From assembly GCA_010405405.1 (NCBI GenBank), contig MU004232.1:701481-765480 (forward strand): a DNA stretch of 64,000 bases, read 5' to 3'. The translations under genes were made by a program, and so were the position numbers. Below are positions 13,046 to 38,854 of this stretch, piece by piece. Each line of letters begins with the position of its first letter. The first letter of the stretch is position 1. The notes under the pieces were generated by a model that saw only the letters and a list, made by a program, of their open reading frames with translations, did not search any database and was not told the origin of the DNA. Source of the stretch: Microthyrium microscopicum (Eukaryota).

Positions 13046-13220
13046 TTCCCATCGCACTTTATGGGAGCCACCAAGTGTTATGGCAGCCAGAAGCCGCGAC
13101 GGTGATATCTCGCCAATCTAGAATCTTTGCGAAATAGAGATGATCAACTGCTTCTGTTGAAATTATAGGGTATGTTGTCGTAGCCATCGAGTGCGATGGG
13201 AGCCACCGGGTGTCTTGGGG
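13046..13220. repeat. Palindrome array 1: two clusters of 19-bp units CCATCG-N4-CGATGG-NNN
   Basis: Degenerate units start at 13049, 13068 and 13087. A perfect unit (CCATCGAGTGCGATGG) starts at 13184 and a degenerate one at 13203. Confidence 0.8.
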
Positions 13221-13871
13221 AATAAGACGTGGTCGTTGACAACTATTTTGCTACAGAGGTCACCACAGAACAGCAGAGTTTCATCCTAATTTCTGCCATT
13301 TTATCGATAGGATTTCTTGGCATATCGTACTGTCATCCTGGAAATGCAAGTTTTCTTTGGCAATATTGCTCTTGGCTGCAAGATTTGGGCTTGGTTTGAG
13401 CATAATGATTTGAGCAAACTCAATAGAAATAATTAATGATCCAGCCAGTTTGCCCATTTGAATGATCATACGGTAACGTAGATTGTTCTTTCTTTATACA
13501 ATCTACCAGTCGTTCGGATAGCACCCGCGAGGTCGCATAATAGCTCGCTGTACCAAACATGGCCCTGACCAATTCCTCAGCAAGCAGTCTATTGTCATGT
13601 TTGCTTCCAGACTGGAGGTGAAACAATAGTGACCGATATTTAGAAGATGAGGTGCTATCAGTGGCGTTCAATGTTCTGGGCTCCTTCCCCTTCTTGATCA
13701 ATAGCCTGTGACGTTTGCATAAGGCCTCTTCCACACCACCATCCACCAAATTTATATCATCCTCCAATTCTTAAACTTGTCAATTTGATTTTCTATCCGC
13801 CTCGTCCATACCAATTCTTCCTTCGGCATTAACCACCACAGCCAGTTCTCTGTTCTGCCGTTCATATCAGG

Positions 13872-14566
13872 ATGTCTCGCTTCCCCATAACTTGTCACAA
13901 TTGTGGACAGTATGGCCATCAAGCTCGTAATTGCACTTACTGTGGCTGCCGCAACTGCGGCAAGCGTAAGTACTAGAAAGACTTCTGAACTACATCCTCA
14001 CTGACTCTATTTTGCAACAGTCGGTCATCACGCTGGTGTTTGCGCCAAGTTCAACTACGAGCAATCTCGATTTCCGACCTGGGCCAATCCGCCCGAATAC
14101 GATGGCCCTTCACGTCCACTGAACCCTGAAGCTTCGCGATTCCATCCTCCCCAAAACAAGCAGTTTTATGGAGCAGTCTCCTTTAGCAATTACAATCAGG
14201 CTATCTCCTACTACAACAACGCCAGCCCATACAACAGCGGGAACCTCCCATTACAGAGACGAGAGAGACCGCAGGCGTGCAATCTGTGTGACGAAGGCGA
14301 TCACGACATCTGGGACTGCTACTACATCAAGTGCTGCATCTGTCAGCAGCAGGGTCACTCTGCCAGTCGCTGCCCATATGACTATGAGGATCGCTATGGA
14401 CGGCATGCTTGCTTTTATTGCGGAAGTCGTAAGTTGTGATACTCTGAGGTTGATTGACAGGCGCTGACAAAGTATCGCAGTGAGACATCGCCAGAAGCAA
14501 TGTGCCTACCGTGGTCAGGCTCTTAGCGACCAAAAGAACGGACGAAGCAGTCAGGCACAATTCTAA
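13872..14566 (+). CDS. CCHC zinc-knuckle protein A (5 knuckles, PAM2-like motif); introns 13966-14020 and 14429-14480
   Basis: Manual splice gives CHNCGQYGHQARNC, CRNCGKLGHHAGVC, CNLCDEGDHDIWDC, CCICQQQGHSASRC and CFYCGSLRHRQKQC. Both GTAAGT...CTGAC...CAG introns restore exact CX2CX4HX4C spacing. Confidence 0.9.
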
Positions 14567-14878
14567 TGCAGGAGGTCATCTTTGGAATAAAGGAATTCTA
14601 CTAGAGGTCAGATAAGATGTCAATATGAAGCTGAGTAGCGGCTGTTGGGTCACTGTATCTGAGCATGTTAAATTCTTCAATTGCAACACTCTCCTTTCTG
14701 TGACCAACAATCCTTCTGACCTTGTCCATCTTCCATGTGATACTATTTCTTTCCTCGTCATTCTATTACCATCACTGTGACGCAATTCCGCAACAGTCGG
14801 CCGGAGCTCAAATTGCTCAATTCAAGTCTAGCCGTTTCGGTAATGAACCTCGTGCCCAATACCTCAGTTGGTCACTGC

Positions 14879-14931
14879 TGAGGCCGCCTGAGCTATAGCT
14901 CCTGCCATTCACTCCATTGAGGCCGCCTGAG
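14879..14931. repeat. 14-bp direct repeat TGAGGCCGCCTGAG x2 in the upstream region of knuckle gene B
   Basis: Copies at 14879-14892 and 14918-14931. Confidence 0.7.
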
Positions 14932-15327: not shown

Positions 15328-15844
15328 ATGTCTTCCTCAAACAACCAACAAAACGAATGCCAGAACTGTGGCGCATGTGAGTTTTACCTTATCTTTTTTG
15401 CTTCAAGTTACTAATGCGGTAACAGATGACCACGAGACCAACGCTTGCGACCAACCCTGTGGTCGTTGCAATATCTACGGTCACCGCTGGTCCCAGTGCC
15501 AGGATCACTGGCGCCCTCAAATCGCGAGGGACATAGCACGCGCTGCCCAAGGAGGGCAGGCGTCAGTCCAGGCGCCTGCCCGAGTGGGCCGCGGAGTGAT
15601 TTGCTTCCGGTGCCAGCGAACCGGCCACAAGGTGGAGAATTGCCCACTGACGGAGTGTCACGTTTGCAAGCAGAAGGGGCACATTGCGATGCATTGTCCC
15701 AATGATACGGGCAAGGCAGTTGCGGAGTCGAAATGCTACAACTGCGGTGAGAGTGAGTTTTTCTTCCATTATTGGAATGATGGACTTGTGCTAACTTCAC
15801 TTCCAGAGGGTCACAAGGCCAACAAGTGCCCAAAGAAGAAGTGA
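15328..15844 (+). CDS. CCHC zinc-knuckle protein B (5 knuckles); introns 15377-15425 and 15753-15806
   Basis: CQNCGAYDHETNAC, CGRCNIYGHRWSQC, CFRCQRTGHKVENC, CHVCKQKGHIAMHC and CYNCGEKGHKANKC. GTGAGT donors with CTAAY branch points. Confidence 0.9.
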
Positions 15845-16039
15845 GAATTCCTGGATTGGGTGGGATCAAAGTGATTCCCTATTAGCGTAGAAATGGCGTA
15901 GGACTGGAATTGGAAGCCTGGCTGGACATGTCTGGCAGGCGCTGTTAGATCAAAATAGAAGGTATATCATGGCTTTCTTCTCAAAATTTTGCTTTTCTTT
16001 TCTTCTCTTGTGTGATATCTTCCGTGTGAAAATTCTAAG

Positions 16040-16970
16040 TCAAAATATCTCCTCCCATCGCATTCGATCCCGGCTATCGCACTTGATGGGAGTTTGGCAC
16101 TATTCGCGTCCTCTTCAATTCTCTCATTTTCCATCAGTTTGTCTTAGATTTCCCCTCAAAAATGTACTAATTATTGCTTTGAACCGTGAATACACCGCAG
16201 TCGATGACGTTCATCGCACTCGAGAGTGGATTTTGCGCTTAATGAGACTCTCAAACTTGTGGGATATCCGCTACTTCTATGCCTTTTCTCTATTTTTCTG
16301 CAGATTTTTTGATATTTCGAAAGTGTAATGAAATAGCTGATTTTCCCATCGCATTCGATCCCAGCCATCGCACTCGATGGGAGTTTGGCGTTATTTGCCA
16401 CTCCTCCTGTTTCTAACAATTTTCTTCAATCTTCTATACTTTGGCCAGTTAAAAAGCAACAATTATTGCTTTCAACCATGTTCCCATCGCACTCGATCAC
16501 ACCCATCGCACTCGATATCGAATTCTGCGCCTAATGAGGCTCTCAAAGTGCTTGAAAGCTCAGCTCTATTCACGCCTTTTCTCCGGTTCTCTATATGTTT
16601 TCCATGTTTTTGATTTGTCGTGAAATGGCCAGAACTCCCATCGCATTCGATCCCAGCCATCGCAATCGATGGGAGTTTGGCACAATTTAACATCTCTTTA
16701 AAATCTGTCCATTTTCCATGAAATGACGGTCTGCTAGTCGTAAAATTGCAATATTTATTGAAGTCTGCCATACTCCCATCGCATTCGATCACAATTATCG
16801 CATTCGATGCTATGCATGCCAGTTATTCAGAGTCTCATAGTGCTCAGATCACCAGCTCCAATTCTGTCCTTTCCCCATTTTTCGCTGCTTTGCCTCACTG
16901 TTCTGAAGTGTTGCATAATTACCAATTGTCCATCGCATACGCTGGAGATTATCAGATGCGATGGGAGAAA
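16040..16970. repeat. Palindrome array 2: seven dimers of the 19-bp unit within a ~292-bp higher-order tandem repeat
   Basis: Dimers start at 16055, 16192, 16346, 16484, 16638, 16776 and 16930 (gaps 137/154/138/154/138/154). The major type reads CTCCCATCGCATTCGATCCCAGCCATCGCACTCGATGGGAGTTTGGC. Confidence 0.95.
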
Positions 16971-17262
16971 CAGGGCTTTATCAGAACTATTTCAAGTCGT
17001 CACAAATCTCGAATTGGGGACTTCATCAGATTTTACATCTGTGGTTGATGAAGTGTCGTTGTCAGTCGACAGCCTTATAGAAAATCTAGGCTTCGATGAT
17101 TGGTCTGCTTCAGAGCCACTAGCCAATGATGAAAAGGCCGCCTGAGAAACAAGGCTGAAGTTTGGGTGCCTTGCGCACATACGCGCGCGTCCATCTTCAA
17201 CCTCCACCACAAATTTGGCTGAAGTCCTCTCCATCTTTCCTCCATCACACAACTCCTTCATC

Positions 17263-18246
17263 ATGGGTATACCGTTCGACTACGCCCAAGACCGGCCCGA
17301 GAACATCGAAGCCATATTAAACGGCCTCGATCGTTACAATCCCGAAACCACCAAAATCTTTGAAGAATATGTCTTGCATCAGTGCGAAAACAAGACCTAC
17401 GACTGCTACGCCAACCTAGCACTCCTTAAACTGTACGTTTCTCCTAGATCGCATGCTCTAATCTTTCTGTTTAAATGATGATCAAATAACCACGTTTCCT
17501 ATTACCTGAGGATTCACTCCCCATGAAGATTTGTTTATTAGCTCTATCTGAAAATCACCCTCCTCACCCGCCCAATTTCAACGCACATATATCAGGGAGA
17601 GACTAACGCGCATCCTCAACTCTCTAGCTACCAATTCAACCCACCGCTAGCCCGCGACGAAACCATCACCAACATCCTCGTCAAATCCCTCACCGTCTTC
17701 CCCTCTCCAGACTTCAGTCTTTGTCTCTCACTCCTCCCCCCACACGTCCTCCAAAAATCCACATCGACCAGCCACTCGAACCCAGCAGCCGGCGACGCCC
17801 CGCTCACCGAGGCAGTCCAAAAGCTCAACTCGCTAAACAACCTGTTGGCATCGGGCGACTACACGTCCTTCTGGAACACATACGATGGCGACGATCTGTT
17901 CGCAGATTTGGTAGCGGATGTCGCTGGCTTCGAGGATATGATCCGGCTACGCATCATTCTCGCAGTCAGTCAAGCGTGGCGCGATATCAGCCTGGAAACG
18001 CTGGAGGAGTGGTTGAACGTGGACGGTAAAGACTTTGAGCACTTGATGGGTGTGGTGGGCTTCAAGGTTGAGGGTGAGACGGTTAAGGTCCCTTTGAATA
18101 AGGAGAATGAGGCCAAGGGAACTGTGATCCGCGAGAATGTCAAGTTCGACCGTAAGTTTACTTCATTGCCTGTTAGGTCCGGCTCGTTGCTAACATAAAC
18201 AGAATTCAATCGTGTCATACGGCGTGCTTTTGAACAGCCTGCGTAA
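17263..18246 (+). CDS. eIF3k: Translation initiation factor eIF3 subunit K; introns 17433-17627 and ~18152-18202
   Basis: [64 protein letters not shown] and [17 protein letters not shown]. Confidence 0.95.
17470..17555 (+). ncRNA. Intronic box C/D snoRNA, predicted guide for 18S rRNA 2'-O-methylation (site equivalent to human Am166, SNORD44-like)
   Basis: Box C ATGATGA 17475, D' CTGA 17506, C' ATGAAGA 17523, D CTGA 17548. Guide TATTAGCTCTA before box D is complementary to the conserved 18S sequence TAGAGCTAATA. It lies in an enlarged 195-nt intron. Confidence 0.85.
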
Positions 18247-18524
18247 GGTCGGCATGGTTGGCATTCGAGAACTGTATTATGAGTTATGTGCAAAGGTAGT
18301 CATGACCGTATGGGTGACTAGAATCAAAAAATCATGCATTTACGCCATTTCTTCCGCTGCCATGCGATGGCCCACAAGGCTACTTTGTGCCTGTCTCTTC
18401 TCTTAGTCGCCAAAAGCTGAGATCTTAGCTTGCTTGACGCACGAGATGCTGCATTCCTACTATACGCGATCCATGCTGCCGCTGCGTAGCCCCGGTTCTA
18501 AGTACACATCTCTGGTGCTAACAT

Positions 18525-19793
18525 TTACCGTCCACCCTTCTGTACCTCCTCCCACTGCACGCCGACCCACTCCTCTCCATACCCAACATTGCCCTCCTCT
18601 GCAAGCGCACAATCCACCCCACAAACACCAACAATGACCGTTCCCCACTCCATCCCATCCACACCCATCTCCTCCTCCTCCAGCTCCGTAATCGCATGCG
18701 GCGTCAACTGTACCTCGAATACTCGTTGGGCCCCACAGCGGGTACATCGCGGCATCCGCGAGCCTTCTGAGGCCGTCACCACCAACTTGCCCTCTCCCGA
18801 AGTAGATGGAGTGAGCAACTTACCGACAGCATCGGTATTACTATAGAGTACTGGTGCGCCGCCAAATTCATAGCGCAGCACTTGTTCTGGATTCTGCGCC
18901 ATTCGGTCCGCGAACTTTTGGAAAGTCTTGTCCATGCTGGATTCGAAGAGGTCTTCTACGCGGCCGCTGGTGCCGCCACCACTGGAGTCGGTGTCAATCG
19001 TGGGAAGGCTTTGCTTGGGGGTAGGTGGGGCGGAGAGGGTTTCGTAGTCCGCGTCAAGGTGGTAGTGTGGGAAGGGCGCTGAGAGTTGGTCCAGTGTTGG
19101 CCAGGGTTCGTGCGGTGGCTCGTGCGAGGGTGGTGGAGTGGAGAGACGGGCTTTGGACGCGAATGTTTCAGGGAGGGTGGTTATGTCTGAGGTAGTAGAG
19201 TCTGTGTTCGCGGATGGTTTGCTCGTGGGCGCGGCGGTTGCGAAGGGGGTAGCGGCGAAGGGATTTGCTTTGTTGACTGCGGTGCTTGTTGCGAAGGGAT
19301 TGGTGCGTTGTGTCGTTGATGAGGATACACCGAAGAGTTGCGCGCCAACATTGATGGATGGTTTGGCTGGTTCTGGAGTTGATTGTGGCTTTGATGGAGT
19401 CGGGGCGACCTTGGATATGCGGTTTCCGCGCATCGCTCGTATGCTGCCATCTTTGCGCCGACATGGCTTTCGTCGGCAAGCGAAGATGTAGAGCCAGCGC
19501 TCATGGCCAGGAAACTTGCTGGGGAGGTCACCGTTGAGTTGGAGCAGGAGGGAGCAATTATCATTGCAGACTTTGCATTTCGCAAGCGATCCGGAAGGCG
19601 TTGTCTTTGAGTCTAACCATGTCTAAGAATTCATTAGCATTGGAGCTATAGGTTTTGGGCCTCGTCATACTGGAGTGCCGCCCAAATGGCTTGTACTGTC
19701 GTCAGTTGGTTCTTTGCTGGCATAACCAAGAAGGGTGAGAGTTTCTGTGTAAGGCTGATCCTCTCCGGCGGATGAATCGCTATCGTAATCCAT
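18525..19793 (-). CDS. TSR4: PDCD2-C domain protein (Tsr4-like); intron ~19623-19670
   Basis: TLLGYA, HLGGTP|TWLD, CKVC...LLLQLNGD, FQKFADRMAQNPEQVLRYEFGGAP, FEVQLTP and GMEWGTVIVGVC. Confidence 0.93.
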
Positions 19794-20153
19794 GGCAAGG
19801 TAGTCGTTCTTACTTTTGATTTTTCTCCCTCATAAAAAGTTGAAGCAGTTGTAAAAGTAAAGATGCTTATCGATAACAGGCCGCCGCTAGCACTACTCTA
19901 AGCCTAACATAGCCTAGCGTTACTTCCCACAACATTGCCCAACTTCACTGAATCTGATCTCAGCCTGACAGCAACGACGATACCACCCAAATGCGAAAAT
20001 CTCATTGTCCTCATCATTGATAGTGGAAGCTGTAAACTATAGCAAAGATGACTCGAACAAGGTTCTAGGGCTCCACAAAACCATTACGATCCTCCAACTA
20101 TTCTGAGGAACACAGGCCGCACCAGGCTGAGCTGCTACGGCTCCAAGACCAGA

Positions 20154-21855
20154 ATGAGGCTCCTGAATGTGCACACATCACAATTAGAGGAATTTTTCGG
20201 CATGAATATACCAGACTACGCCATCTTATCTCACACGTCGAACGAGGAGGAGGTTACCTTTTCTGAAATTGGTACTCAAGAAGCAACGCGAAAGAAAGGC
20301 TTCAAAAAGATCGACTTTGCTTGCAAGCAAGCCATTAAAGATAAGTCGACATATATCTGGATCGACACATGCTGTATTGGTACGTCGTTCTCAACTTGTT
20401 TCGACTGCGGATGGGATGATCCCCATCGCATGTTGAAGTCATTCCACATAAGAGTGCATAAATCATGGCCCCACAGTCCCATCAACGGTCAACCTTGCTT
20501 GGTGGTCTCGCAATAAATTTAGTTAGCGCAAGGCTTCTGCTTCTTGCAACGCTTTTGCGACTAATTCCTGTCAATTCTAGGTTCTGAGCTAATATTCATG
20601 CAGACAAAACCAGTAGCTGTTTGGTGTTGCTATCCCCTTACTATATGGCCAAGGCACCAAATCCTTCCTCTGTCTCCAGGAAGAAACCACAGAGTTTCAC
20701 AAGATGAGTCTATCCTTGCATGGGGCTTCGTTGACAAAACAATATTCTCTTTTGGTTGCCTCGATCAAGAAATACACCCTTTGTATCAAGATTATACGTT
20801 TCTAGGCGGGTTCTTTCCCCTATATGGAAATGGAGGCTTTGCTATTTCACCACGACAGTTTTATAATCCATTAAGCAGCGCTCAGATAGTTCCTCGTTGG
20901 TCTATCAACTCACTACACCAGTGTTCATGACTAATAGAGGTTTACAAATGACCCTCCCGTTGATCTGGTTGGACGAAAAGCAAGCTGTCAAGATAATTGG
21001 TCACGCTTTGAGATTTTCCAACTTGTGGACAGATCCAGATCAGCTGCAAGCAATGTTGGATTATTGGGATGCTAGGGTCTCCAGAAGCACTCCATCAAGC
21101 ACGCAGTTAGTGGCCATCGGGTTATTGTCCTGCCAAACGAATTCTCAGGACTTCATTATCATGATGCTATTTCCGACTTTCAGGCGATATCCCACTATTC
21201 ACTGTGGCAGTATCTCATGCCATCGCCCTTAGTTCAGAACAAAGAACGATTCACATCCAGAAATATACTCCATCCGTCTGTTTTCGAGAACGGCCATTAT
21301 CTCAGGAACGCACATTCTATAGCGTCAGTGTTTCAACAACAGCCATTGCAAACATTGGTTATGGAATAATCAAAGTGGTAATTCCTCACCCATATCTCAA
21401 TCATGTCGGGGCTCCTCATAACTATGTATGGGACAAAGGTCACCATCATGACAGACCTGAAAGTGTAAACTCTGTGAAGTCTGCGCCTGCCTGGGAACAG
21501 GAATCACAGACCATCTTCCTTAGCCGCGACCGCCTAGAAGCGGTAATACTAAATCTTAGACTCGCGAGCTATTCAAGAAATAGTAGGTTTACTACTACCT
21601 TGGGAGGAGGAAAAGGAAAAAGTCGTCACGAAGACCTTGCAAATCCCTTGCAATCGCGACACAAATGTTAACCTGAACAATTTTATTCAAACTAATGAGC
21701 TAGAAATTATCGAATCATACGGTCCGCAAAACATGCAAAGCTCGTTTGATACCGATAAGAAAGAAGACGCGCTTGACATTTCAGTCTCTTGCGACATTCG
21801 TGAGATTTTCAACCAGCAGATATACTCAGTAAAGTTTGCAATGAAAGGCGAGTAA
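20154..21855 (+). pseudogene. Decayed HET-domain (heterokaryon incompatibility-like) gene
   Basis: MRLLNV...YAILSHT(W>S)...YIWIDTCCI|DKTSS across intron 20380-20603. The HET core is then missing, and downstream remnants (DESILAW, FMTNRGLQMTLPL) lie in shifting frames. Confidence 0.8.
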
Positions 21856-23309
21856 GGACACGGGTCGTTCTTTGAGGACGTCTTTCTTCTTTCACAACAA
21901 GAATTTCGCCTCGAGTACTGTCCATGTGAGAGCATTGAATATAGCAGGGTCTTCAATTGAGATGCAACCATGGTCGCAAGACAAACCGAGTTCCTGCAGG
22001 TGTATCATGCTATGGCCCCCTTCCTCTTCTGATTCTATCGTCGCGGCGACCTGAACATACAATCCTACTGCACCAAATGCCACCGATGCTTCGAATCCAG
22101 GACCAAGCCGGAAGTTTCAATCCAGCCGTAGAGCTCCCGCACAACACCGCCCAGCTTTACCACAGACTGTGCACAACTACCCGATCTTGCACCTCGGAGT
22201 CTTCTATCTGGACTCTCAGACGAATCCCATGTGGACCTCGAAAGCCTCCCGGCTCGTATCACATCTGGACTCTCGAGTGGTTACAATGTTGAACCCACGA
22301 GCCCACCAGATGTAACAGCACCCACGCCGTGAAAGAAGCGCCAATCAAAGAAGCCCCTATTGATATGGGATATTCAGGATGCCCCTAAATAACCTGAACC
22401 TATTCCGCCGCCGCCAACACCAGAACTCTTGGAATCTACTACCTTGGAACTGCTCCAGATCAAATACAGGAGTCGCTGGCAAAATCGTTAGGCGCATAAC
22501 CCCGATGTGACTCTGTGTTGCTAAAAAGCGTTTGCTGGCATGGATCTAGCAACAGGCGAAGTTGATGAGGCAAAGCGGCTCATACAATACCAAGATTCCC
22601 ACCATTCGGATACATGCAATGCCTTGTAGGAAAGTTTTGGGGTAGCAAAGACGAGAATAATATCGGTAAGCCGTTCGTACATGAATTCGCGGTTGTTGGC
22701 GGCCTTAGAAGTCAAAAACTCCTAACATTTCCCTCACTTCCTTCACATTGATGGGTCAGCGCATTTAGGCAATAAATCGCTTGCTTTAGCTTTGAAAGCC
22801 GTTTCGACATTTCTAGGAGAGCTGTTCACTCTGTTAAAAACTGAAAATAAAGTAGGTGGGCCTTTCGAGGAATTCATTTCCATTTCTGTATGTTTGCTCT
22901 GAACTTGATCTCTCATGTTCTTCCATTGCGGCTAATTTTTGTTACTCGGAATTGACAATAAGGCTGTCTCATATTGTTGTTTCATTGTTGAGTTGTAATC
23001 AGTCGCTCTTGCCCTGCTGATACATGGCTGACTGCTAATTGACCACATGGCAGGCAGAAATGGCAATTGAGGCCGGAAGGCTGGATTCTCAGCCATTTGA
23101 TTGGCTGTAAGACTTGAGTCAAATGCAGCTTCCCGATATGACAGGTACTCCTCTCGTGCTCTAGTCTGCTTGCATGTGTGTGCTCTGAGGTTTCGATTTG
23201 CTTCTACTTGGAATTGATCTTCCTCCTTCTTTATCCTACTCTTCTTTTTCTCCTCCAACTTTCATTCTACATCGCACAAATCGCTTACCAATATTCATCG
23301 CCAAACGCT

Positions 23310-27630: not shown

Positions 27631-28060
27631 CGTGGCGATGGAGAAGGATGTTGTTGCTTTGAGAGGGAGTCGATGGAAGTGAAGTGATGTTGAGCGAGCC
27701 AAAAAAGTGCAGAGTAGAGTATGAGAAGGGCATTATTAGAGCAAACATAATCACAAAAGCAAGCTGCACAATATTGATATTTAACCCGTTGATTTCATTA
27801 CCTACAATGCGCTATATTCTGCCGGTCATACCAACATATAACCCATTCCCATATGTTTTCCGGCACCGCAACCCTTCGCGGCATGTCCAGTAACTTTGCA
27901 CCAGCACCGGGGGATAACGCCAGGCTAAAAGCATACGAGATTTTGATTTGGTAACCACGTTACCATGATATCAGCAGGCATGATCAAGCCAAAGCGGGTC
28001 AGAATCAACTCGAGTACACACGGATGGAAATTTGCACGGGCTAGCTCCCGTACTAATGAA

Positions 28061-30424
28061 CTACCGCACGTCCTTCAACCAAGCATCGGCTTCGTCAAAT
28101 TGCTTGCGGTCCGCAGCTTTGATGAGATTACCAGCCGCTCTAATTCCTGCATACACGGCGTCCCAAAGCTGGAAAGCCTTCTTGAGGTCACCCTCGTAGT
28201 CGACGGCATAGATGAAGACTTGCTCCTTAATGCGCTTCTTAATGGCGGACTTGGTGTCGGGTGCGGATGGATCCTCCTCTACACTGACGGCGTCGAGATA
28301 TGTGTTGACTGCGATACCGAGTGCGCAGGTGTTTTGAAGAACGAAAGGTAAACTGAGAAAGTCGTTAGTAGGCTATACACCAGGGAGTGAAGTCAGGCAT
28401 GGTAGGGATGGCACGTACCCGAGACCGAGATCCTTGTAATCGTTACGCTCGCGCTCTGCGTCGCCGTTGAGCAGTAGTGTAACCAAGCACACTTCGCCCA
28501 GGTCACGGAGGCTGGAGCTAACAGCGGCCGCCATTGAGTGATAGCCAAGATAATTGCGGCTGAGCGGACCAGTATAACCTATTTCCTGGTGTTGTAGACG
28601 GCCGAGACAGGCAATGCGAGAAATGAGGAGGGTGTTGCGCTTGATTTCTTCGCTGCCGCGGTATGGTGCGCCGTGGTATTGCGGATGCATGTTGTTGGCA
28701 TTGAGCAGACCATAGCGAGCGAGCTCAATGGCGATGACGACAGCCTCTTCGAGTTCGGTAATTTTGACTCCGGTGGAGGCTGAAGGAAGGAGAGCAAGAG
28801 CAGCGTGTAGAACCTGGCCCCACTCAGTGAGTGTGTGGTCGCGGTTGATGTAGCCACGGAGCTGCAGAAGGCGCCAGATGCTGTTGAATAGAATTTCATC
28901 CTTGGTTTTGAGAAGACTGTCATTGTTACGCTTAGTTAATGAAGTCTTGGCAAATGAACCGCTGTCCAAGGCCTTGACTGCGATACCCAAGAGACCACTA
29001 CCCTGTATAGAGTTAGTTGTAGTAATGGGCAATGCAAAAGAGTAACATACGATGAACTTGTTCTTCACCGAACCATATACGCTCTCGTGGACATTCCAAT
29101 CTTTCATCAGAGGTCGAGGGTCATCCAGGTCTTTCATACTAATGACCGATGAATTGTACTTGTCGAACCAACTGCGAAATTCTAGGTCCTTGTGTTGATA
29201 GAACCGGGCCAGGGAATATGAGAGAAGTGAAATGGCCGCTGTTCGGACTGGAGTGAGTTGGTTCTGTACGAGATCCTTATATTCTTCGGAATCGCCATTA
29301 TCAATGGGTGGAAATTCAAGAATGTATCCAGAAGTGCGCCAGTTCAAGACTCGCGTGCCGATGACACCTTTGGACATGTAAAAGTATAGCTCTTCTGGCA
29401 GGCGCTGTCCAATAAACTCATGAACATCACCCGGCGCCTGTTCAACGCTAGATGGTTCAACCTTTCCGTCTGCCGTCAATACCACATGATGTTTGATCGC
29501 CAGCTTCGCTCTACGAAAACGATCCACATAGCCCATTTGTACCACCGTAGGCTCATCATTGTAGTGCGTGCACACAGAGTGTCCACTTCGTCCCATACTG
29601 GTCATGATCAACTCATTTGCCTGTTTAATCTTGAATTGGACTGGTTTCGGCTGAAGGGCCAGGTGTGGGAACATTGGAAGAATGGAGTTGCCAGCAAGTA
29701 GACAGGCATCCAGGAAAGCATCGTAAGAGGGTGAGCCTACATCACTCATGCAGGAGCGAACTTTGACCCATGAGAACTCGGCCTTTTTGAAGTCCCAGCT
29801 TGTGATCACCTCAGGCACTTGGAACATGAGTAGTTCTGAGCTGCCCGCAATAGCATCGACTGTTTTGGCCGTGTACAAACATTGGAGCTGTAACGATTAG
29901 TTGTGAGCAATACCTGAGCAGAAACCGTAACCAACCTGAGCTAGAGCTCCATATGGAGCAACCAGGAACTCAACACCTTCTTCACTGAGCACAGTTTGTA
30001 GGAATCGAAACAAGTCCTCCGCTGTGACAGCCTCGGAGTTGCCAAAGGTGATGACCGACTGGGCTGCATCGTTACTATAGTACAGATCCCAGGCGTTCTT
30101 GTTGATTCTTGATGCTTCCTCCGAAGCTTGAAAGGACTTGTCTACAGGCGCAGTTTGCAGACCACTGAAGACAAACAATGGCGTAACGCCATGTTGCTTC
30201 CATACCGCCAAAGTGTTGCAAACGACAGATCGAAGTCCGAATGGAATAGGTCCGAGAGCAGGAATGAGGGATTCTTTGATAGGACGATCGATGTTGGGGA
30301 CTGAATAGCCTTGTAAACGGTTGATGTATTCGGTGGCTTCGATACCAATAACACAACCGTTTAGAGTGTCCAGGGAATCGTACTCGACCAAGTTGGCCGT
30401 CCACTCTTGGAAATCGGTGATCAT
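28061..30424 (-). CDS. MKT1: Mkt1 (XPG/PIN-fold post-transcriptional regulator), multi-exon
   Basis: VIGIEA, PLFVFSGL, FLVAPYGALAQ, GDVHEFIGQRLPEELYFY, LQLRGYI, GYTGPLSR and AFQLWDAVY. Stop at 28061. Confidence 0.92.
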
Positions 30425-31999
30425 TTTGGGCGATATGACTTTGAGGACAAGGTTTCCGCGTCTGCGTAAAGTGGAGCAACTCGTGGGCGCGGCGTGGGAG
30501 AAGGAGAGCGAAGCGATGCTTGAAGTAAAAGGAAGATACTAGGAGCTGTAAGCTGAGTAGTGAAAGCAGCTCACGATATCAGCATTAATGGGGCAATACC
30601 GTACTTCGGCCACTCAATAAGAGCTCGGAAGCATAATGGTTGGCGAATGGGGAATGTTGCGTTTGAAGCAATTCCTAGCGCTTTTGAGGAGTTGAAGCTT
30701 TGGTAGGCGCCGCCCAAGCTTTTTGCAAGGCTGGAATGCGCACTTCAGGGTCTTCCACTCCACCCCACCCTGCCAAGGTCCCGGGTTGTGCTTGTTCCTC
30801 CTTATCTTAAGATCTTATCAGCTCCATCTCTTCTAACTTCACTCGAATTGTTCTTTCTTCCAACACGCACAACAAGAGTGCAGAGAAGCATAAACGCGTG
30901 TCTTTCGAAATCTAACCTTGGCTATGGCGAGACCACCTCAACTTGTAGGCTTGGTCGCAGCGATAATCCGCATGACTCGATTGCGTCCGCCAGATTGGCG
31001 TTCGCCGCAATGCCCCCATATCGTGAAGGCTGCGATCCGCGGTAAGTGATTCTGGTCGTGGCATCGACTCAAGTCTTATAAGAGAGCGAGAAAGGCCAGG
31101 ATGCGATTGTCTTTGTTCGTGTTATGAGAGCCAGCAAAACGGATTGTGCGGAATGTGTCTCATAGAGGTGAAAGCAGCAATGCCATTTCTTTGTACTTTT
31201 CCTTTGAGGGTCTCATTCAAGTTTCTGATATTGACAATTCTAAGCAAGTCATCTTATCAACACAACAAGCTCTTTGAAGCATTTCATTTTGCTCCTTGAA
31301 CGCTGTTTGCTATGTTCTAAACATGATGAAAGATCTCCAGTGGCATTGGCGTTCTTATCCAAACCGGCCATATCAGTCCTTACACGGCACTTCACGATTT
31401 CCAATATCAAATTGGAAATAGCAGGAGCGTTCAGGACTAGGAACACATTATTGGTTAGTGTATGATTTCTTCCATCTGTCATACTACACTTTGCCTAAGG
31501 CCTCCTGATTCCCTCTTTCAGTAAGTAAGACTACGTGATATATCGTTCTGCTGTCCTCACCTAAGCTTCCCTCCTTCCTGCTAATCTTCTGCTGCCTAGA
31601 GTCGCCTTGACATTCAGTTGCCTAAGGACGCTTTTCTGCTCTCGCAACGTCTTTATAAAAGGCCTCTTTACGCCCCTCCTCCGTCTTCCTTCACTTCTTC
31701 CTCTTTACCTCAAAGCCGCCTTAACAACCTGCTCTCTCCTTTCAGTACGTCTTTTCATCTCCTTGAATTCTCTCGCTAATCAAAGCAGAGTTGGGTTCAA
31801 GGGCCAGATTCCTTCATTGCAGCTCTCAAAACTTCACTCCTCAGCAACTTGAACCTTCAGCATTTCAGCACGTCGACTACCCTTACATTCAGCATCTCAC
31901 AGCCCTTCTTGTAGTGAGTGCCTCATCATTACCAATTTTTACTAAATACGGTGCTAAATCTCGGCCCAGAAAGCAGTCAAGCAAAAATTCTCTGGCATC

Positions 32000-34090
32000 A
32001 TGACGCGACGAATCGTTATCGACTTGACCGGCTCACCTGAACCCGAGGAAATCACTGACATTGACGGATTGTTTCTGGAAGCTCCTACCACAGATGAGAC
32101 CATCCGTAGAAGCCCGAGTGTTGCGCAGTCAGATGTCTCGGACGAAGAATTTGACTTCGACCAATTCTTACACGACGTAGTCGTAATAGATAATGGCAGT
32201 GATAGTGATTCGGACTTGGAGATCATTAAGACAACGCAGGTTCAGCCTACAACAACCCCAGCTCGACCGGCACCTCGAGCTAGGCAGTTCACTGAGTCGT
32301 TTCTGGATTCTTACACCTCTCAAGGACAGACTATCGCCTTGAATGACACTTTGGAGCTCCAACCACAAGACCACAAGCGAGGCGACATATTGAAGGTCAT
32401 CCAAATAATCCGCAAGAAGAAGGGCGTGTTCCTCCGTGGACAATTGTTTCGCCGTTCCGTCTATCTTCCCGAAGTTAGCCATATGCACATTAACGAAGTG
32501 ACGTTGAAACGAAATATCCAAGACCGAGACACCGAGCATGAAAAAGAGCAGCGATATGACGATGTTCCTGTCTCGCGAGTTCTGATCGATGGCGATGAGC
32601 TACGAAAGCGAGAAGTCATCAAATCCTGCGATGCTTGGCCTGCCCATAATCCCAAGAGCGTTACAACAAAAGGACTCTTTGACAAGGAGTTCCTTAAGCG
32701 TAATGGCCCACTGTTCTGCCGTACCATTTACTCCGCAGTTTGGGAAGATGTTCAGAAGAAGAAAAAGCTGGTAGGGGAAGAGATCCGTCGTGTTCGTCTC
32801 TCTGAATCGCATCCTGCTTACTCCGATTGTCTTCCATCGGAGAGACACGAAACTTTTGATCGTTCCGAGGCCATTCAACATCGAGAAGGAGGAATAACGT
32901 ATGGATCTGGATGCGCCGGTGCCGGTGGCGATGTCACAGGCGCAAAAATGGCGGGCGCCCAAGTCATGTGGGCGTTCGATAAAGACCAGTTGGCAGCAGA
33001 GAGCTTAAGAGCCAACCATGATGGTCTACTTGTCCTTTGTATGGACCAATCCGAAGCGCTCGAAATTGTCCGCCGCTACAAAGTCGACATAATGCACACT
33101 TCTTGGCCATGCCAGGCCTTCTCGCCCGCAAACACGGCCGCCACAACAACTCAAGGTCAGCGAAACAATGAAATCAATTCCGCGCTCATCTTAGCTACGA
33201 AGCATCATTTGCAGGTTATGCAACCTCTTTACCACACTCAGGAAAACACCTTTGGCCTAAAGAGCATAGAGAAGGCCAAGTACTACTTTCGAACTATCAT
33301 TTCTGATATGTTGGACCAAGGCTATAACGTGCAATGGCGAGTTTCTCAATTCACCCATTACGGTCTCGTTAGCTCACGGAAACGCCTCATCACAATTGCC
33401 AGCCTTTATCAAGTCCCCATGCCAGCTTTCCCGTTACCTACGCATGGCCCTGAGGGATCTGGTCTCCAGCCCTACACCACAATGTGGGATGCCTGCGGAC
33501 ATGTCCCCCCAGATGCAACTTACCATAACCAGCTGGGTATGTGCTACTATTACCCAGAGCGGAAAGAACCTTATGATCCAGAGCGAAAACGCTCCATCGG
33601 CTGCTTGACCACGAAGTCTAATCTGCTTGGCCACTGGAATGGCTTTCGTGCTCTCACTCCTCGAGAATGTGCTTGTTGTCAAGAGTTTCCAATAGACTGC
33701 ATATTCAAAGGCAGCAAAACACAAATCGTGAAGCAGATAGGCAATGCCGTGCCTCCCAAAGTCTGGAGCCAGTTCGTCAAGTCTATCATGAAGACTCTGC
33801 AAGATTGGCGTGACGGTAAAATCGACGATGAAGGTCGCCCAATGCCCCGACCCTCCTCCCATCACCAGCAAGAATCCATACTCCTACCTCAACGTCAATC
33901 ACCACCTCCACGACCATCCTCGCGAGCACCGTCAATATCTCTCCCAATACGTAGACCCCAAACCGGCTCGCGAACTTCAAATCACGAACGATCCCCGTCT
34001 CGATCTCGTCAAAGCTCATTTCGAGATCGAGCCTCTCATCATCAACAAACAATCAATCCTCCCTATGCCAGACCCTCGGAATGGATCTAG
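32000..34090 (+). CDS. C5-cytosine DNA methyltransferase, RID/Masc1-like architecture with divergent motifs
   Basis: Motif I SGCAGAGG, II WAFD, IV SWPCQAFS, VI QENT, VIII SSRKRLI, IX LTPRECACCQEFP, X KQIGNAVPP. Also FPLPTHG, a ~300-aa N-terminal region and a Ser/Arg-rich tail; intronless. Confidence 0.9.
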   Translation: MTRRIVIDLTGSPEPEEITDIDGLFLEAPTTDETIRRSPSVAQSDVSDEEFDFDQFLHDVVVIDNGSDSDSDLEIIKTTQVQPTTTPARPAPRARQFTESFLDSYTSQGQTIALNDTLELQPQDHKRGDILKVIQIIRKKKGVFLRGQLFRRSVYLPEVSHMHINEVTLKRNIQDRDTEHEKEQRYDDVPVSRVLIDGDELRKREVIKSCDAWPAHNPKSVTTKGLFDKEFLKRNGPLFCRTIYSAVWEDVQKKKKLVGEEIRRVRLSESHPAYSDCLPSERHETFDRSEAIQHREGGITYGSGCAGAGGDVTGAKMAGAQVMWAFDKDQLAAESLRANHDGLLVLCMDQSEALEIVRRYKVDIMHTSWPCQAFSPANTAATTTQGQRNNEINSALILATKHHLQVMQPLYHTQENTFGLKSIEKAKYYFRTIISDMLDQGYNVQWRVSQFTHYGLVSSRKRLITIASLYQVPMPAFPLPTHGPEGSGLQPYTTMWDACGHVPPDATYHNQLGMCYYYPERKEPYDPERKRSIGCLTTKSNLLGHWNGFRALTPRECACCQEFPIDCIFKGSKTQIVKQIGNAVPPKVWSQFVKSIMKTLQDWRDGKIDDEGRPMPRPSSHHQQESILLPQRQSPPPRPSSRAPSISLPIRRPQTGSRTSNHERSPSRSRQSSFRDRASHHQQTINPPYARPSEWI

Positions 34091-34469
34091 CTCAACGTTG
34101 AGTTCAAAGAAAGAGTCTTATTATAACATTCGGAAGCATAATAGGAAGGAAGGCAATCAGAGCTTTAGTAATAAAAAGCTTAGCAAAAATGTATAAGTAA
34201 TCAAGGCTAGGAAAGACATAAAGTCTATAAATATTCGAGTTATGTATTTTTATAGGATTGACTAGGAAACATGATAGCAATGCAGACTTAGGTTTCATTT
34301 AGACTTTGCATTTCTCTTTAGTGACTAGCATTTTTGACATGTCAATATAAGTACCTATAATGCATACAGAAATGATGACAACAGTTTGTATTGTAACATG
34401 TATTTTGCTCTATTCCGCGCTCTCAAGTTGTCACTACCTAAGTTTCTTCACTCTCTGAACTCATCATTC

Positions 34470-35712
34470 TCACATTCCAAACATAGCATTACTGCCTGCC
34501 GGGCCAGAACCACGGCCACGACCACTGCCTCGCTTGTGCGGGCACTTGCCCGTCTTGTGTTCGGCTTTGCCAAAGTCAGTATCTACGGGCCTGAGGTAGA
34601 AAACGAACTTACTGCTTTCACAAACAAAGCACTTTCCCTCCAGGATCAAGGCACGAGTCCGAGGATCTGGACAGTCCTCTGAAAGGTGGCCCTTTCCCTT
34701 GCAGCCCCTGAGAAAAGTTAGCCAATCCAAGCTTTGCAAACATCGGTGGAAACTCCCATCGCACTCGACGGCAGCCATCGAATGCGATGGGAGCCATGAA
34801 GGGGGATCAAAATTCATGACAAGGCATCCAAAATGCGAAAATTGCAGTTTTTGCCAACAGAAAATCGCAAAAATCGCAGATATTGAACACCTGGCACGAA
34901 CTCCCATCGAATGCGATGGTAGCCATCGAGTGCAATGGGCGCCATGAAAGGTGATGGGAGCCATGGAGAATGATGCAATTTCATGACCAGACACCAAAAA
35001 AACTGCGGAACATGCAGATATTGGACCTCTGGCATGAATTTTCATCGAATGCAATGGTAGACAGCATATACGATGGCTCCCATCGAGTGCGATGGGAGCC
35101 ATTGGCAACGATAATAGATTTGGAAAAAGACAAAAAATGCAGAGAAGATGGAGGAACAAACTCACCAACATGGTGTGTGGGGGCAATTGCGGTACTTGTG
35201 ACCGCGCTGTTCGCAATAGCGACATTCCGGGAGGCTCCGGGAAGCACCAGCATCTCTGGCAGGCAATGCTGTATATTGGGGCGCCGTTGATGGTGGCGCA
35301 TTACCAGAAGCAAGCGGTGCTGGTCCAGTGCCAGCAGCCGCAAGCTCCAAAGCCTCTGCTTGATTGCGCAGGAGGCCACCCGGAGCCCAACCGCACTGGA
35401 AACCGTAATGGCTACCAGCTATATATGGAATCAGATTGTGTATGGAGGAGGGAACGATCGAAAGGCTTACAGCGGCCGCAGTAGCAACACTGCACATGGC
35501 AGTGGTCAATGAGGTGGCCGGCTAGAAGACAGTCAGATCAATGACCTCTTAATATGCTGATATATATCTTACGATCCCGGCAGATCAAGCAAGCCCGCTG
35601 GCATTGCTCGGTTTGGTGGTCGTCTACAGAGCAATTAGTTACGCACCACGGCGAGAAAAACGCGGGAAATTGACTCACTGCCACCGCAGAAGTTGCAGAA
35701 AGGAGCATCCAT
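34470..35712 (-). CDS. CCHC zinc-knuckle protein D (6 knuckles), paralogue of C; five introns including the 458-nt intron 34708-35165
   Basis: CNFCGGNDHQTEQC, CLICRDPGHLIDHC, CYCGRSGSHYGFQC (atypical), CRYCEQRGHKYRNC, CW|GCKGKGHLSEDC and CFVCESTEHKTGKC. The long intron has GTGAGT...GCTAAC...CAG. Confidence 0.9.
34752..35115. repeat. Palindrome array 4: three clusters of 3-4 units inside the long intron of knuckle gene D
   Basis: Units at 34756/34775/34794, 34904/34923/34942/34961 and 35042/35061/35080/35099. The linkers are homologous (TTCATGAC...GCAGATATTG...CTGGCAYGAA). Confidence 0.95.
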
Positions 35713-36732
35713 CTCGCTGATGATGCTAATGTAAGGAATTGGATGGTGGAATATAGAAAGGCCACGAGAGAAAAGCGCAAGTCCAAAAGGCGCGTGTAGA
35801 TGTTGCTTGAAGGAGAGTGAAAGGATTTCAAATTCTGGTGGGCGAAGACACCACTGTGGGGTATGACTAAGAAGGACAATTATATATAGAAGGAGCGATG
35901 GAGAAATAAGAAAGAGCCATTGTACTAGTGTGAGCACTCAAGGCAGGAGGGAGTGGGTTGTGGTGGGTGGTTCCTTCTACTTTGGGAAGGGGAAGGGGAG
36001 GTTTTATACCAAAGCAAAAAGAGTATGAGACGATGTATATCAAATTCTGTAATGACCATAGTACTTAGTGACATGCTAAATATGAAGCGTGATGGATCCC
36101 AAATATCAGATATCATTCGCCAAATCTCCAAATATGTCCAATTCTAAGATCGTGCTCTCATAGAGTTAGCAGATGATACATCAGCTTCTGGCGGAGTCAA
36201 TGACCAACATACCCTCCTGACAGGCAAGGAGCATTAGAACAGTTATTTCGAGAGAACTTTGGGATAATACATCAAGGAATAAGGTGTGAACACTCCAGTG
36301 ACCAAGCCACTCGTCTTTTCTGTCTTCAATTACTAACAGATGCAAGTCAACACTGAAGCATTCTCTATGCGTCTTACCGCGAACATAACCAACTTGGCCC
36401 TGTCTGGAAAAGAAAAATATCAAATAACCCTTATGATCCAGAGCAGCTTGAACCTGTTTAGATCAAACCAACGGATTTCGATGATGGACAATACGGTAAA
36501 CGTTGCTAGAATATGGCCCTGTTAACTTCAACCTGAAAATGCACCTCAAGCTTACTTCACCAACTTACCAGTCACTGCCGACAAGTCTCTATGTCTTGGT
36601 TCGCGAACAATTCATAGCCAACCTCGAGCGTTTGGCCACGTTTGTCTGAAGTTCACTCTCATATATACTCCTTTTTGCCATGTCTTCCCGGTCTATTCCT
36701 CTCTACCAAAAAACCAATCAACAACATTCACC

Positions 36733-37407
36733 ATGACTTCCTGCCAACTTTGCCAAAACACAACTGGTGGACAAAACCACTCTGAACTGGACTGCGATCT
36801 GCTTTATAGCGTCTGCGAGGACATTCTCTCAACGATATGCAATGAATGCGCGGGCAATCACCGTTTGATCGACTGTCCATCCATAGCTCCAATTCGACAA
36901 GAACTAGTCGACTGTCGACTGAACGCTATTGTTGCTCATAGAATAGCTATGGATTCCATGGGCATTGACGAACCTTTAGAAGCTATTGAGGCGCAAGCTG
37001 CGGCTCTAGCATGCTACAAGCAAATTCCAGTGCCTTCGACTGTTCCAGTTCCAGCTATCATCATCAGTGATGCTGATCACGATGTATTCGAAGATCGTGT
37101 CTTGTATCCAGGGGCCAACGCTGCTGTTGTGCAGCCTGATTTGCTGCATGTTCGCGCGCGCTGGGTATACGGGTTCTCCAGTGCCATGGCATCTGATGCC
37201 GATGAAGAGGAGGAGGAGGAGGGGTGGGATTCCGAGTACGATGCCGATGGAGAGGACGGGTGGGAGTCTAGTGTATGGGACTCAGGGGAGGTCACAGAAA
37301 TGGAAAGCGTCTCTGAAGCATGGGGATCTGAGACTGAAGTGGAGGATGCTTCAGATTATCAGAGCTCTGAGCCCGCGCCTGAGGGAAGCTTCTGGGACGA
37401 GTTCTAA
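36733..37407 (+). CDS. Orphan protein E: two CCHC-like fingers and an acidic Trp-rich tail
   Basis: CQLC-x8-H-x4-C and CNEC-x3-H-x4-C. TATA-like ATATATA at 36661 and a CACCATG start context. Confidence 0.8.
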   Translation: MTSCQLCQNTTGGQNHSELDCDLLYSVCEDILSTICNECAGNHRLIDCPSIAPIRQELVDCRLNAIVAHRIAMDSMGIDEPLEAIEAQAAALACYKQIPVPSTVPVPAIIISDADHDVFEDRVLYPGANAAVVQPDLLHVRARWVYGFSSAMASDADEEEEEEGWDSEYDADGEDGWESSVWDSGEVTEMESVSEAWGSETEVEDASDYQSSEPAPEGSFWDEF

Positions 37408-37831
37408 ACTTCTGAACGATTGATATTGATTAGAGAACGTATCGCTGTTTCCAAAGATGAAAGTTGTCTCTCTCTGATTGTGATTAGACTGTGATCTTGA
37501 TTATCAGCTCGACTTCACTTTTAACGGCTTTGTTTCATTTGAGGAGATATTTGCAGATACAAAAGAACAATGACCTTGTTTCTCAAATAGACCGATAGCT
37601 TTGTATATAAATTGGGAAGGCACCCATTGTATGTCGCAGAACAAGGCCTTAGTTATGGTCATTGTCCCTTCACATCGTTCATATATATACTCCTTGTCAA
37701 ATAAGTCCATCATGGAGTTCTACCACTACCAGAACACCAAGTCAAATTCGATACCACCGATATTGCGACATATCGCAGTCAAAATTTCCGTAAAACATCC
37801 AATAAGTCATCAAACATCAGTGTCGGCAACA

Positions 37832-38854
37832 ATGAACAACTGCAAAGTCTGCACAACGCTCTTCCATAAGCCTCAGCACCATCAGGCTGAAAGCTGTCCC
37901 GTCCTACTCGGTTCAGATGAGAGCTTCTACATGGCGAAATGCACATACCTGTTGTGCGAATTCCAACCTCGCACCCATACTCTCCTTACTTGTCCTCGCA
38001 AGGCTGAACTTCTCAAACGCATCATCACAGTCCGACAGACCACGATCCCTCACGATACGCGCCAAGCTTATTATCCAGACCTCGTTCGACATGTACTCTC
38101 TCTCAAGCCGCGAGAACTCAATGCGCTCCCACTAGAACATCGCCAAAGAGCCCATGCCATCCACCACGACTACCAGTCAGTCCCACAAAAGCCCAGCCCA
38201 GAAGCATTTTCCAAGTTGCGCGCACTAACAGCCTCACAGATAGACAAGCTTCCACTCATAGACCAGCGAGCCATCCACTCTCTACGAGAACTCGATGCGC
38301 AGCAACAAGCAAAAGTTCAAGCAAAGGCCGATGAAGAACACAGATTCCTTCTCAAGCAGCTACTAACCCGCACCCCCAAACAACTAGACGCGAGCCCGAA
38401 AGTCGAGAAACTGATGACCCTCCTCAAGCAGATGCTAGATCTGACTCCAGATCAAATCAAGTCCATGCCACATATCGAGCAGATGCAAGTAAAGATCCTT
38501 CACCGGCAGTTCCGTCAAGGTACAGCTTCGCGTATGCCATCTCGAATCAAAGATGTCATCGAGCACTCCGGCATGACTCCAAGTGCTAAATGGTTGAAGA
38601 AAAGACGTCAGCCAGCGAAGAAAGATCCTGGTGTTGGACCGAAGCCATACAATCCTGATGGGACGTACAGTCCGTTCAAAAACGCCGATAGCGTACTTGG
38701 AAGTCCGGCGAAGATTGGCGCACCGAAGAGTCATGGGTCTAGTAGCCACGGGTCGGTGACTTGGTCTTTGGCTTCAGAGGATGGTGATGAGGCGCCGACT
38801 TCGACGGCGCAGATGCGTACTCTGGAGAAACGGTTCGGGCAGACAGGATTATAA
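37832..38854 (+). CDS. Orphan protein F: two CCHC-like fingers plus tandem CSTF_C-like helical repeats
   Basis: ATG at 37832. CKVC...H....C and CTYLLC...H....CP. Repeats VLSLKPRELNALPLEHRQ, LRALTASQIDKLPLIDQR and MLDLTPDQIKSMPHIEQM. Confidence 0.8.
   Translation: MNNCKVCTTLFHKPQHHQAESCPVLLGSDESFYMAKCTYLLCEFQPRTHTLLTCPRKAELLKRIITVRQTTIPHDTRQAYYPDLVRHVLSLKPRELNALPLEHRQRAHAIHHDYQSVPQKPSPEAFSKLRALTASQIDKLPLIDQRAIHSLRELDAQQQAKVQAKADEEHRFLLKQLLTRTPKQLDASPKVEKLMTLLKQMLDLTPDQIKSMPHIEQMQVKILHRQFRQGTASRMPSRIKDVIEHSGMTPSAKWLKKRRQPAKKDPGVGPKPYNPDGTYSPFKNADSVLGSPAKIGAPKSHGSSSHGSVTWSLASEDGDEAPTSTAQMRTLEKRFGQTGL

Follow-up and report, generated by a model that had tools for sequence, protein, structure and literature searches.

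Why should four small genes in one short piece of a fungal genome, all of them encoding rows of CCHC zinc knuckles, each have a cluster of the same palindromic repeat beside it or inside it? The question comes from a 64-kb stretch of Microthyrium microscopicum DNA (contig MU004232.1 of assembly GCA_010405405.1, positions 701,481 to 765,480; this whole stretch is hereafter called the window). An original prediction, made from the letters alone, had seen there a possible regulatory or genome-defence module composed of knuckle genes, palindrome arrays and a divergent RID-like C5 DNA methyltransferase. It had also named an alternative, accumulation in dispensable DNA, and this is the reading that we favour. 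With a probability of roughly 0.55, a dispersed palindromic repeat would have settled and been locally amplified in plastic, lineage-specific DNA beside a small family of knuckle genes, and two of its copies would be spliced out as atypical introns.

Four repeat clusters and a family of knuckle genes

The repeat core is about 19 bp long, CCCATCGCAYTCGATGG plus GAG, and stands in direct or inverted doublets. Its exact pattern, CCATCGNNNNCGATGG, has six matches in the window, all within four clusters (A to D, Table 1), and none of 100 shuffles had any match. With up to two mismatches, 20 of 24 matches fell in the four clusters and four were scattered (3478, 19780, 28191 and 41068), where shuffles gave a mean of 2.5 and a maximum of 7. 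An oriented scan with the 16-mer and up to four mismatches found 36 non-overlapping matches, 27 of them in clusters; the nine scattered ones are about the shuffle level (mean 7.45). As predicted, there is no array in 1–13 kb or 36–64 kb, and across the 64 kb the motif clusters only at A to D. A profile built from six units of cluster B matched only B, C and D in the window, and cluster A is seen only by the short motif.

The clusters had been described as four 19-bp arrays. Four clusters are indeed present, but they are spaced doublets and triplets and not continuous 19-bp arrays. Groups of two to four 16-mers at 19-bp pitch follow each other at 137–154 bp in B and at 129–176 bp in D, and Tandem Repeats Finder picks up just 34904–34964, in cluster D, as a 19-bp tandem of 3.2 copies. 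Cluster B has a higher-order unit of about 292 bp, with 6.5 units in all. The doublets of B are direct, those of C and of the first group in D are inverted, and inverted ones also stand at the ends of A and of B. An inverted doublet makes a palindrome of 35–41 bp, and on folding such doublets gave hairpins of 16–19 bp with z of −4.9 and −3.3; the former is the 41-bp near-perfect palindrome of cluster D (34753–34793), which as single-stranded DNA forms a hairpin of −17.1 kcal/mol.

Core and spacers differ sharply in conservation. The 40-nt cores of cluster B are 90–97% identical among type-1 units and 71–85% among type-2 units, while the spacers of both unit types are 50–63% identical (shuffled spacers: mean 44%, maximum 62%). 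Between clusters only the core aligns: BLAST of the four regions gave matches of at most 45 nt, the repeat finder returned only core-based families, and the genes have no DNA-level similarity to each other. Because the cores are alike and the genes are unlike at the DNA level, the cores are either younger than the gene duplications or have been kept alike.

The core is also present at other loci of the genome, in dispersed copies as expected of a miniature inverted-repeat transposable element (MITE). We aligned contigs from four public runs (X4, which is DNA, and X5, X6 and X7) to positions 15750–35749 of the window. From X4, 42 of the 66 aligned contigs match only partly and then continue into unlike sequence, and the loose ends of contigs pile up at core edges (34753, 34791, 34793, 34939 and 35080), with at least 5, 3, 3, 2, 2 and 2 contigs at six places. 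The X4 depth bin over cluster D reaches 3204, against about 1010 in the adjacent bins. All three flanks that were tested, from X5, X6 and X7, are absent from the window, which likewise places the core at other loci. As a rough guess, these loci number in the tens. Several joints inside cluster D were set aside as contig-end overlaps, their sides being just 24–44 nt. In metagenome contigs a 26-nt doublet pattern matched nine loci, each single-copy and with no cluster, and these were taken as chance matches. A search of literature full text for four forms of the 16-mer found none.

The four knuckle genes had been placed at 13872, 15328, 26030 and, on the minus strand, 35712, and splice-aware models gave the same starts. 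The model of gene C is identical, letter for letter, to annotated P0008, a named CCHC-type protein of M. microscopicum. Unsplit canonical CX2CX4HX4C knuckles number nine in the window, all within genes A–D, against 0.27 in shuffles. A 61-aa three-knuckle module is 52% identical between genes C and D, the alignment of B with D takes in most of B (167 columns, 30% identity), and A is more distant. On these alignments the four genes form a real and paralogous CCHC family. A fifth relative, P0030 (203 aa, five knuckles), has the module seen in C and D, at 45% identity; it comes from the same species and the same 2.9-Mb scaffold, lies outside the window and has an accession 13 numbers from that of gene C. 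The Pfam family zf-CCHC matched gene B (33 bits) and P0030 above its cut-off and gene C below it (17.2 vs 20.8 bits), and the exons of genes A and D had no zf-CCHC match.

A full search with the exon of gene C returned 251 matches at E up to 0.001 and, apart from its own product, only generic knuckles; the matches outside the species were likewise generic knuckles, from animals and basidiomycetes among others. The last large exon of gene C had no match among 22 near-length candidates, and a search with P0030 matched only P0030 itself. An Atlas look-up with the gene B exon scored at most 0.88, a mere lead toward generic zf-CCHC clusters. Since the outside matches are only generic and the word-based searches came back empty or with the query, the family looks lineage-specific, with no detectable orthologues. 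CCHC knuckles are generally binders of single-stranded nucleic acid. Small size, five or six CX2CX4HX4C knuckles and low-complexity linkers liken genes A–D to proteins of the CNBP/Gis2/Air2 type (Pfam zf-CCHC, PF00098). Unlike those, A–D match only generic knuckles outside the species, and are four genes in 22 kb with nearly all introns at one fixed knuckle position.

Introns that carry the repeat

Genes A–D have 13 introns in the splice-aware models, and 11 of these are 48–55 nt long, in phase 1 and at codon 7 of a knuckle: two in A, two in B, three in C (48–52 nt) and four in D (48–55 nt). Such introns at a fixed position point to growth of the family through duplication of a knuckle-plus-intron unit. 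The other two introns, of 263 and 458 nt, are off that position, and they are exactly the two that contain the repeat. This link between the repeat and the off-position introns is newly found in the present analysis. That clusters C and D lie inside long introns had been predicted correctly. The intron of gene C (26821–27083) is in phase 0 and interrupts a Gln/Pro-rich linker; that of gene D (35165–34708), in phase 2, falls within the fifth knuckle, at its codon 2.

Splicing of the gene D intron restores a canonical knuckle. Its alignment to the uninterrupted ones of C and B needs no gap, and by this comparison of paralogues B and C are intronless at the matching site. For gene C, the annotated model likewise excludes the repeat by splicing. 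The two introns have in common only 26–39 nt of the core, and 55–65 nt at each end, splice sites included, are unique to each. Because they break the otherwise very regular exon structure of the family, they are probably late gains. The simplest history would be that insertion of the repeat made them, or that small young introns were later enlarged by it. For the question whether introns in Dothideomycetes can be seeded or enlarged by palindromic repeats, the locus thereby offers a small and clean test case.

Read in the frame of the exon downstream of it, the 458-nt intron of gene D has no stop and lies within a stop-to-stop open reading frame (ORF) of 276 aa (34470–35300, minus strand); if retained, it would still cause a frameshift relative to the upstream exon.

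Readings of the pairing

Cluster A lies 89 bp past the stop of ureD, with 667 bp between its end and the ATG of gene A (about 650 bp had been claimed), and cluster B starts 205 bp past the stop of gene B (about 200 bp claimed) and ends 296 bp before the ATG of eIF3k. For both, the housekeeping gene is as near as the knuckle gene. With C in a linker intron and D in a knuckle intron, the location of the repeat is different for each of the four genes, so that there is no conserved cis position. We compared the arrangement with random placement of four clusters of the observed lengths. All four came to lie at most 667 bp from a knuckle gene in 0.06% of trials, or in 0.7% when long ORFs were masked; when one cluster per gene was required, the values were 0.003% (uniform) and 0.07% (ORFs masked). 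The 667-bp threshold was set post hoc, and the clusters were placed independently, an assumption that local spread would violate.

The favoured reading, a dispersed repeat in plastic DNA, would account for these data as follows. The clusters would be members of a dispersed family of short palindromic repeats that behaves as a non-autonomous mobile or satellite-like element. Within 22 kb of lineage-specific and gene-duplicating DNA this repeat may have settled four times or more, and then have grown locally into short tandem arrays. The same stretch carries the locally expanded family of small multi-CCHC-knuckle genes, and the pairing of repeat and gene would come from shared young and tolerant DNA together with local spread of the repeat. 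We infer that the two intronic copies arrived late and are removed by splicing, having created or lengthened the introns that hold them. The methyltransferase would adjoin gene D by happenstance and have no part in any mechanism with the repeats. No transposase or reverse transcriptase was found in the window, which has no Rfam family at the gathering threshold and no tRNA or tmRNA gene; this fits a non-autonomous element.

Short dispersed palindromic cores, local arrays with monomers of about 150 bp and a non-coding nature are features of MITEs, foldback elements, Helentron-derived tandem arrays and the bacterial repetitive extragenic palindromic sequences and interspersed mosaic elements (REP/BIME). 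The present clusters differ from all these in their nearly random spacers between cores 90–97% alike. For a MITE, terminal inverted repeats and target-site duplication are the criterion; here the cores are palindromic, and element ends or duplications could not be defined by eye or BLAST. Other classes were considered and rejected. A foldback element whose inverted arms would be clusters A and B lacks support, as A and B match over just the 16-nt core. An array like the clustered regularly interspaced short palindromic repeats (CRISPR) is out of place in a eukaryote with spliced genes, and alternate-unit spacers still align weakly (up to 63%). Given the zero results of the Rfam and tRNA/tmRNA scans, the repeat is neither a cluster of small nucleolar RNAs nor a tRNA-derived short interspersed element.

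Several observations weigh against the favoured reading. The association within the window (p about 6e-4 for uniform placement and about 7e-3 with masking) is real and not fully explained by it. Other dispensable genes have no cluster, namely the heterokaryon-incompatibility (HET) gene, ORF 23142–24977, the methyltransferase and the two orphan ORFs. If only tens of loci exist in 37 Mb, four clusters in 22 kb are a strong local excess that needs explanation. A core conserved to 90–97% beside nearly random spacers calls for selection on the core or its directed homogenisation, and would suit a functional binding site. We found no target-site duplication, no terminal structure or repeat beyond the core and no autonomous partner, points that also set the clusters apart from the elements named above, so that mobility is conjectural. 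Finally, two introner surveys, in the parts of them that are available, give this genome, listed with 37.1 Mb, 58 scaffolds and 12,493 proteins, a score of 0 (PMC9860276, PMC12130899), which disfavours an active intron-generating family.

Some of these points suit a rival reading, in which the 19-bp palindrome would be under selection as a site bound by a sequence-specific factor, or by the knuckle proteins acting on hairpin DNA or RNA, with gene and cluster as one functional or duplicating unit. All four clusters lie in or at most 667 bp from the four knuckle genes and none lies elsewhere in the 64 kb, the core is far better conserved than the spacers, the inverted doublets form the hairpins described above, and the fifth paralogue, P0030, is on the same scaffold. 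The association and the conserved core against decayed spacers are what keep this reading alive, and judging from the sequence we hold it possible, if unlikely. Against it, the position of the repeat relative to the gene differs every time, ureD and eIF3k are equally near to clusters A and B, the introns that hold the repeat in C and D, the closest paralogues, are not homologous, the motif is present at other loci, and the two knuckle-like orphans have no cluster. A bolder version, in which knuckle proteins recognise the palindrome as hairpin DNA or RNA, gene and repeat spread together and the repeat can become a new intron, seems very doubtful; were it true, the locus would hold a low-copy, protein-linked intron-generating element that introner surveys have missed. 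The plain reading, if true, would describe an ordinary lineage-specific repeat and a gene family in shared plastic DNA, with mainly annotation value. A related proposal, compatible with that plain reading, is that insertion of an introner-like repeat into coding sequence made the third intron of gene C and the fourth of gene D. It would explain why the only two of 13 introns off the fixed position are the two with the repeat, why the gene D intron sits seamlessly in a knuckle whose peptide aligns gap-free to the uninterrupted ones of C and B, and why the annotated gene C model splices the repeat away. Introner-like elements were described in Dothideomycetes, the same fungal class as here (PMC4457414, as far as its available part goes), and symmetrical sister introns with seamless integration are known in Hypoxylaceae (PMC8469720, likewise in part). 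Hairpin-prone intronic repeats at new positions, seamlessly inserted, are common to those systems and to the present case (PMC4457414, PMC9860276 and PMC8469720, from the portions at hand). Unlike introners, however, the repeat brings no splice signals, only a core of about 39 nt is shared and not the whole intron, two of the four clusters are intergenic, and the window has just two intronic copies, both in paralogous genes, where introners are many near-identical introns in unrelated genes. No target-site duplication was seen, the contig joints listed include no junction for either repeat intron, and the surveys cited above list no introners for this genome. We also found no literature that pairs M. 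microscopicum with the term introner. On balance, an introner-like origin appears quite unlikely.

Defence against repeats, which the original prediction had raised, would require that the RID-like methyltransferase act on the clusters through repeat-induced point mutation (RIP), methylation or Rid-dependent RNA interference and so silence the knuckle genes in the sexual phase. The enzyme gene does adjoin gene D and is transcribed and spliced, and each 16-mer has two CpG. The mutational record, however, is the opposite of RIP by the usual index thresholds: TpA/ApT is 0.14–0.60 in the clusters and (CpA+TpG)/(ApC+GpT) is 1.6–2.8. Observed/expected CpG is 0.91–1.06 in clusters vs 0.86 in the window, which is no signature of CpG loss, and transitions do not prevail where units differ from each other (58 against 83 transversions in one unit type, 105 against 83 in the other). 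In Fusarium graminearum tandem repeats are known to undergo Rid-dependent silencing, and in the available part of that report it failed below 1109 bp (PMC12366691). The present clusters resemble that system, and tandem repeat-induced sexual silencing generally, in joining tandem repeats with a Rid-type enzyme, but units of 138–154 bp with spacers 50–63% identical are far under the roughly 1.1 kb and the identity it needs, and no mutational signature is seen. On the indices, the CpG ratio, the unit length and the spacer divergence, we reject RIP or Rid-dependent silencing of the clusters. Just one of the four clusters adjoins the enzyme, no link between enzyme and repeats was found beyond this adjacency, and the methyltransferase has relatives in other fungi, while no orthologues of the knuckle genes could be detected. 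We regard the defence reading as extremely improbable. Given the variable cis position, the motif at other loci, the lack of a RIP or CpG signature and the short units, a functional regulatory or defence module is unsupported.

The methyltransferase and other features of the window

The methyltransferase encoded in the window is identical (100%) to annotated M. microscopicum P0001, and its gene stands tail to tail with gene D, as predicted, with stops at 34090 and 34470. X5 contigs are spliced at its three 5' introns (31452/31599, 31744/31789 and 31913/31970) and cover 31970–34153, so the gene is transcribed. That X5 is RNA is a guess; its contigs have GT..AG or CT..AC joints at nine introns, in eIF3k, TSR4, MKT1 and the methyltransferase.

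PF00145 (107–108 bits) is the sole Pfam family in P0001 at E up to 1, and no BAH, RFD, chromo or SNF2 domain was found at that level. Motif IV contains PCQ, of which P489 and C490 are invariant in an alignment of seven sequences and Q is variable, and motif X contains GNAVPP. The target-recognition region has only about 75–80 aa, as motif VIII ends near residue 590 and motif IX starts near 654–668. According to the accessible part of one description, Masc1/RID enzymes are marked by a target-recognition region of about 80 aa and by a motif VI of EQT or EET rather than ENV (PMC6709928). Motif VI of P0001 is ENT, with the T of EQT/EET and the canonical N. Among the seven aligned sequences, five have ENT (P0001, two from Venturia and two others), one has EET (Penicillium angulare) and one EQT (a Gyalolechia). 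Only seven relatives were found, among them ones from Venturia, a Penicillium and a lichen fungus, with 33% identity in the best non-self match.

The label "divergent RID-like" given to this enzyme was therefore fair for its build, in view of PF00145 alone, PCQ and the very short target-recognition region, and does not extend to motif VI. Compared with the Masc1/RID/DmtA group as described in that same source (PMC6709928, in part), the likeness lies in these three features, in a long N-terminal extension without a known domain and in relatives that include EQT and EET forms; the difference lies in the ENT of P0001 and four of its six aligned relatives. From its sequence P0001 is RID-like in build, and we do not file it as a member of Masc1/RID/DmtA because it shares only the T of EQT/EET. 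The species is absent from the available part of the supplement of a DNA methyltransferase classification (PMC7862722). With its four ENT relatives the methyltransferase forms a subgroup by motif VI, which modestly extends the known range of RID-like enzymes.

The N-terminal 300 or so residues of P0001 (31970–33200, plus strand), which no Pfam family covers, contain a block GDF..I..II...LRG..RR..Y common to most of the aligned relatives. The N-terminus also has one or more acidic "IDLT" stretches, recurring in the Venturia proteins, that resemble SUMO-interaction motifs.

Table 1. Positions of the knuckle genes, repeat clusters, methyltransferase and neighbouring features in the window.
Feature	Position	Strand	Description
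Gene A	13872-14566	+	195 aa, 5 CCHC knuckles, 3 exons; introns 55 and 52 nt
Gene B	15328-15844	+	137 aa, 5 CCHC knuckles, 3 exons; introns 49 and 54 nt
Gene C	26030-27630	+	395 aa, 5 knuckles (one with a five-residue spacer), 5 exons
Gene D	34470-35712	-	192 aa, 6 knuckles, 6 exons
Repeat cluster A	13045-13205		three 16-mer copies: 13049 +, 13068 -, 13184 -
Repeat cluster B	16049-16967		14 copies as 7 doublets at 19-bp pitch, starts 137-154 bp apart
Repeat cluster C	26876-27019		about one unit: half-site 26876 and inverted doublet 26982/27001; in gene C intron 3
Repeat cluster D	34750-35112		7-8 copies in three groups; in the 458-nt intron of gene D
C5 DNA methyltransferase P0001 METHYLTRANSFERASE	31462-34090	+	815 aa as annotated; catalytic part in single exon 31970-34090
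UreD	11808-12956		Pfam
eIF3k	17263-18198		Pfam; ATG 296 bp after the end of cluster B
TSR4/PDCD2	18525-19622	-	Pfam
HET-domain (heterokaryon incompatibility) gene	20052-22400	+	in the TSR4-MKT1 block; 19.2 bits vs cut-off 22.5, first ORF piece only
MKT1	28373-30538	-	Pfam
Orphan ORF	36733-37407	+	224 aa from ATG; two degenerate CxxC..H..C patterns, acidic tail
Orphan ORF	37832-38854	+	340 aa from ATG; one degenerate Cys/His pattern
AN1 zinc-finger gene	39649-40128	-	Pfam

The two Cys/His-finger orphans that had been noted beyond gene D exist as ORFs, but they hold only degenerate CxxC..H..C patterns and have no significant similarity to genes A–D. The first (36733–37407) has no Pfam family above cut-off. 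The second (37832–38854) matches the cleavage stimulation factor C-terminal domain (CSTF_C-like repeat, PF14304) with 30.3 bits against a cut-off of 24.3, and on this evidence it is not a demonstrable member of the knuckle family. A stretch of the type "L-T-P-x-Q-I..L-P" is apparently repeated about four times in it.

The whole window is ascomycete DNA, dense in genes whose introns are short and of the GT..AG type. Its frame of housekeeping genes (UreD, eIF3k, TSR4/PDCD2, MKT1 and the AN1 gene) had been named correctly, as Pfam confirmed, and it further encodes cohesin SCC3, a P450, a ferric reductase, EMG1, an amino-acid permease and a cullin. In the clusters, the half-site plus its flank, GCGATGGGAG (for example 16369–16383 and 34779–34793), is one base off the PAC box of ribosome-biogenesis promoters, GCGATGAG, and cluster B is upstream of eIF3k, possibly by coincidence. 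A 3382-nt contig of X5 spans 23908–26079 (plus strand), from inside ORF 23142–24977 to exon 1 of gene C, which suggests overlapping or read-through transcripts between the two. The other 1210 nt of this contig would by their length fit an intron-free gene C. Two short tandem repeats unrelated to the palindrome lie farther along, at 58618–58659 (21 bp, 2.0 copies, 95% matches) and at 61861–61925 (16 bp, 4.1 copies, 91% matches).

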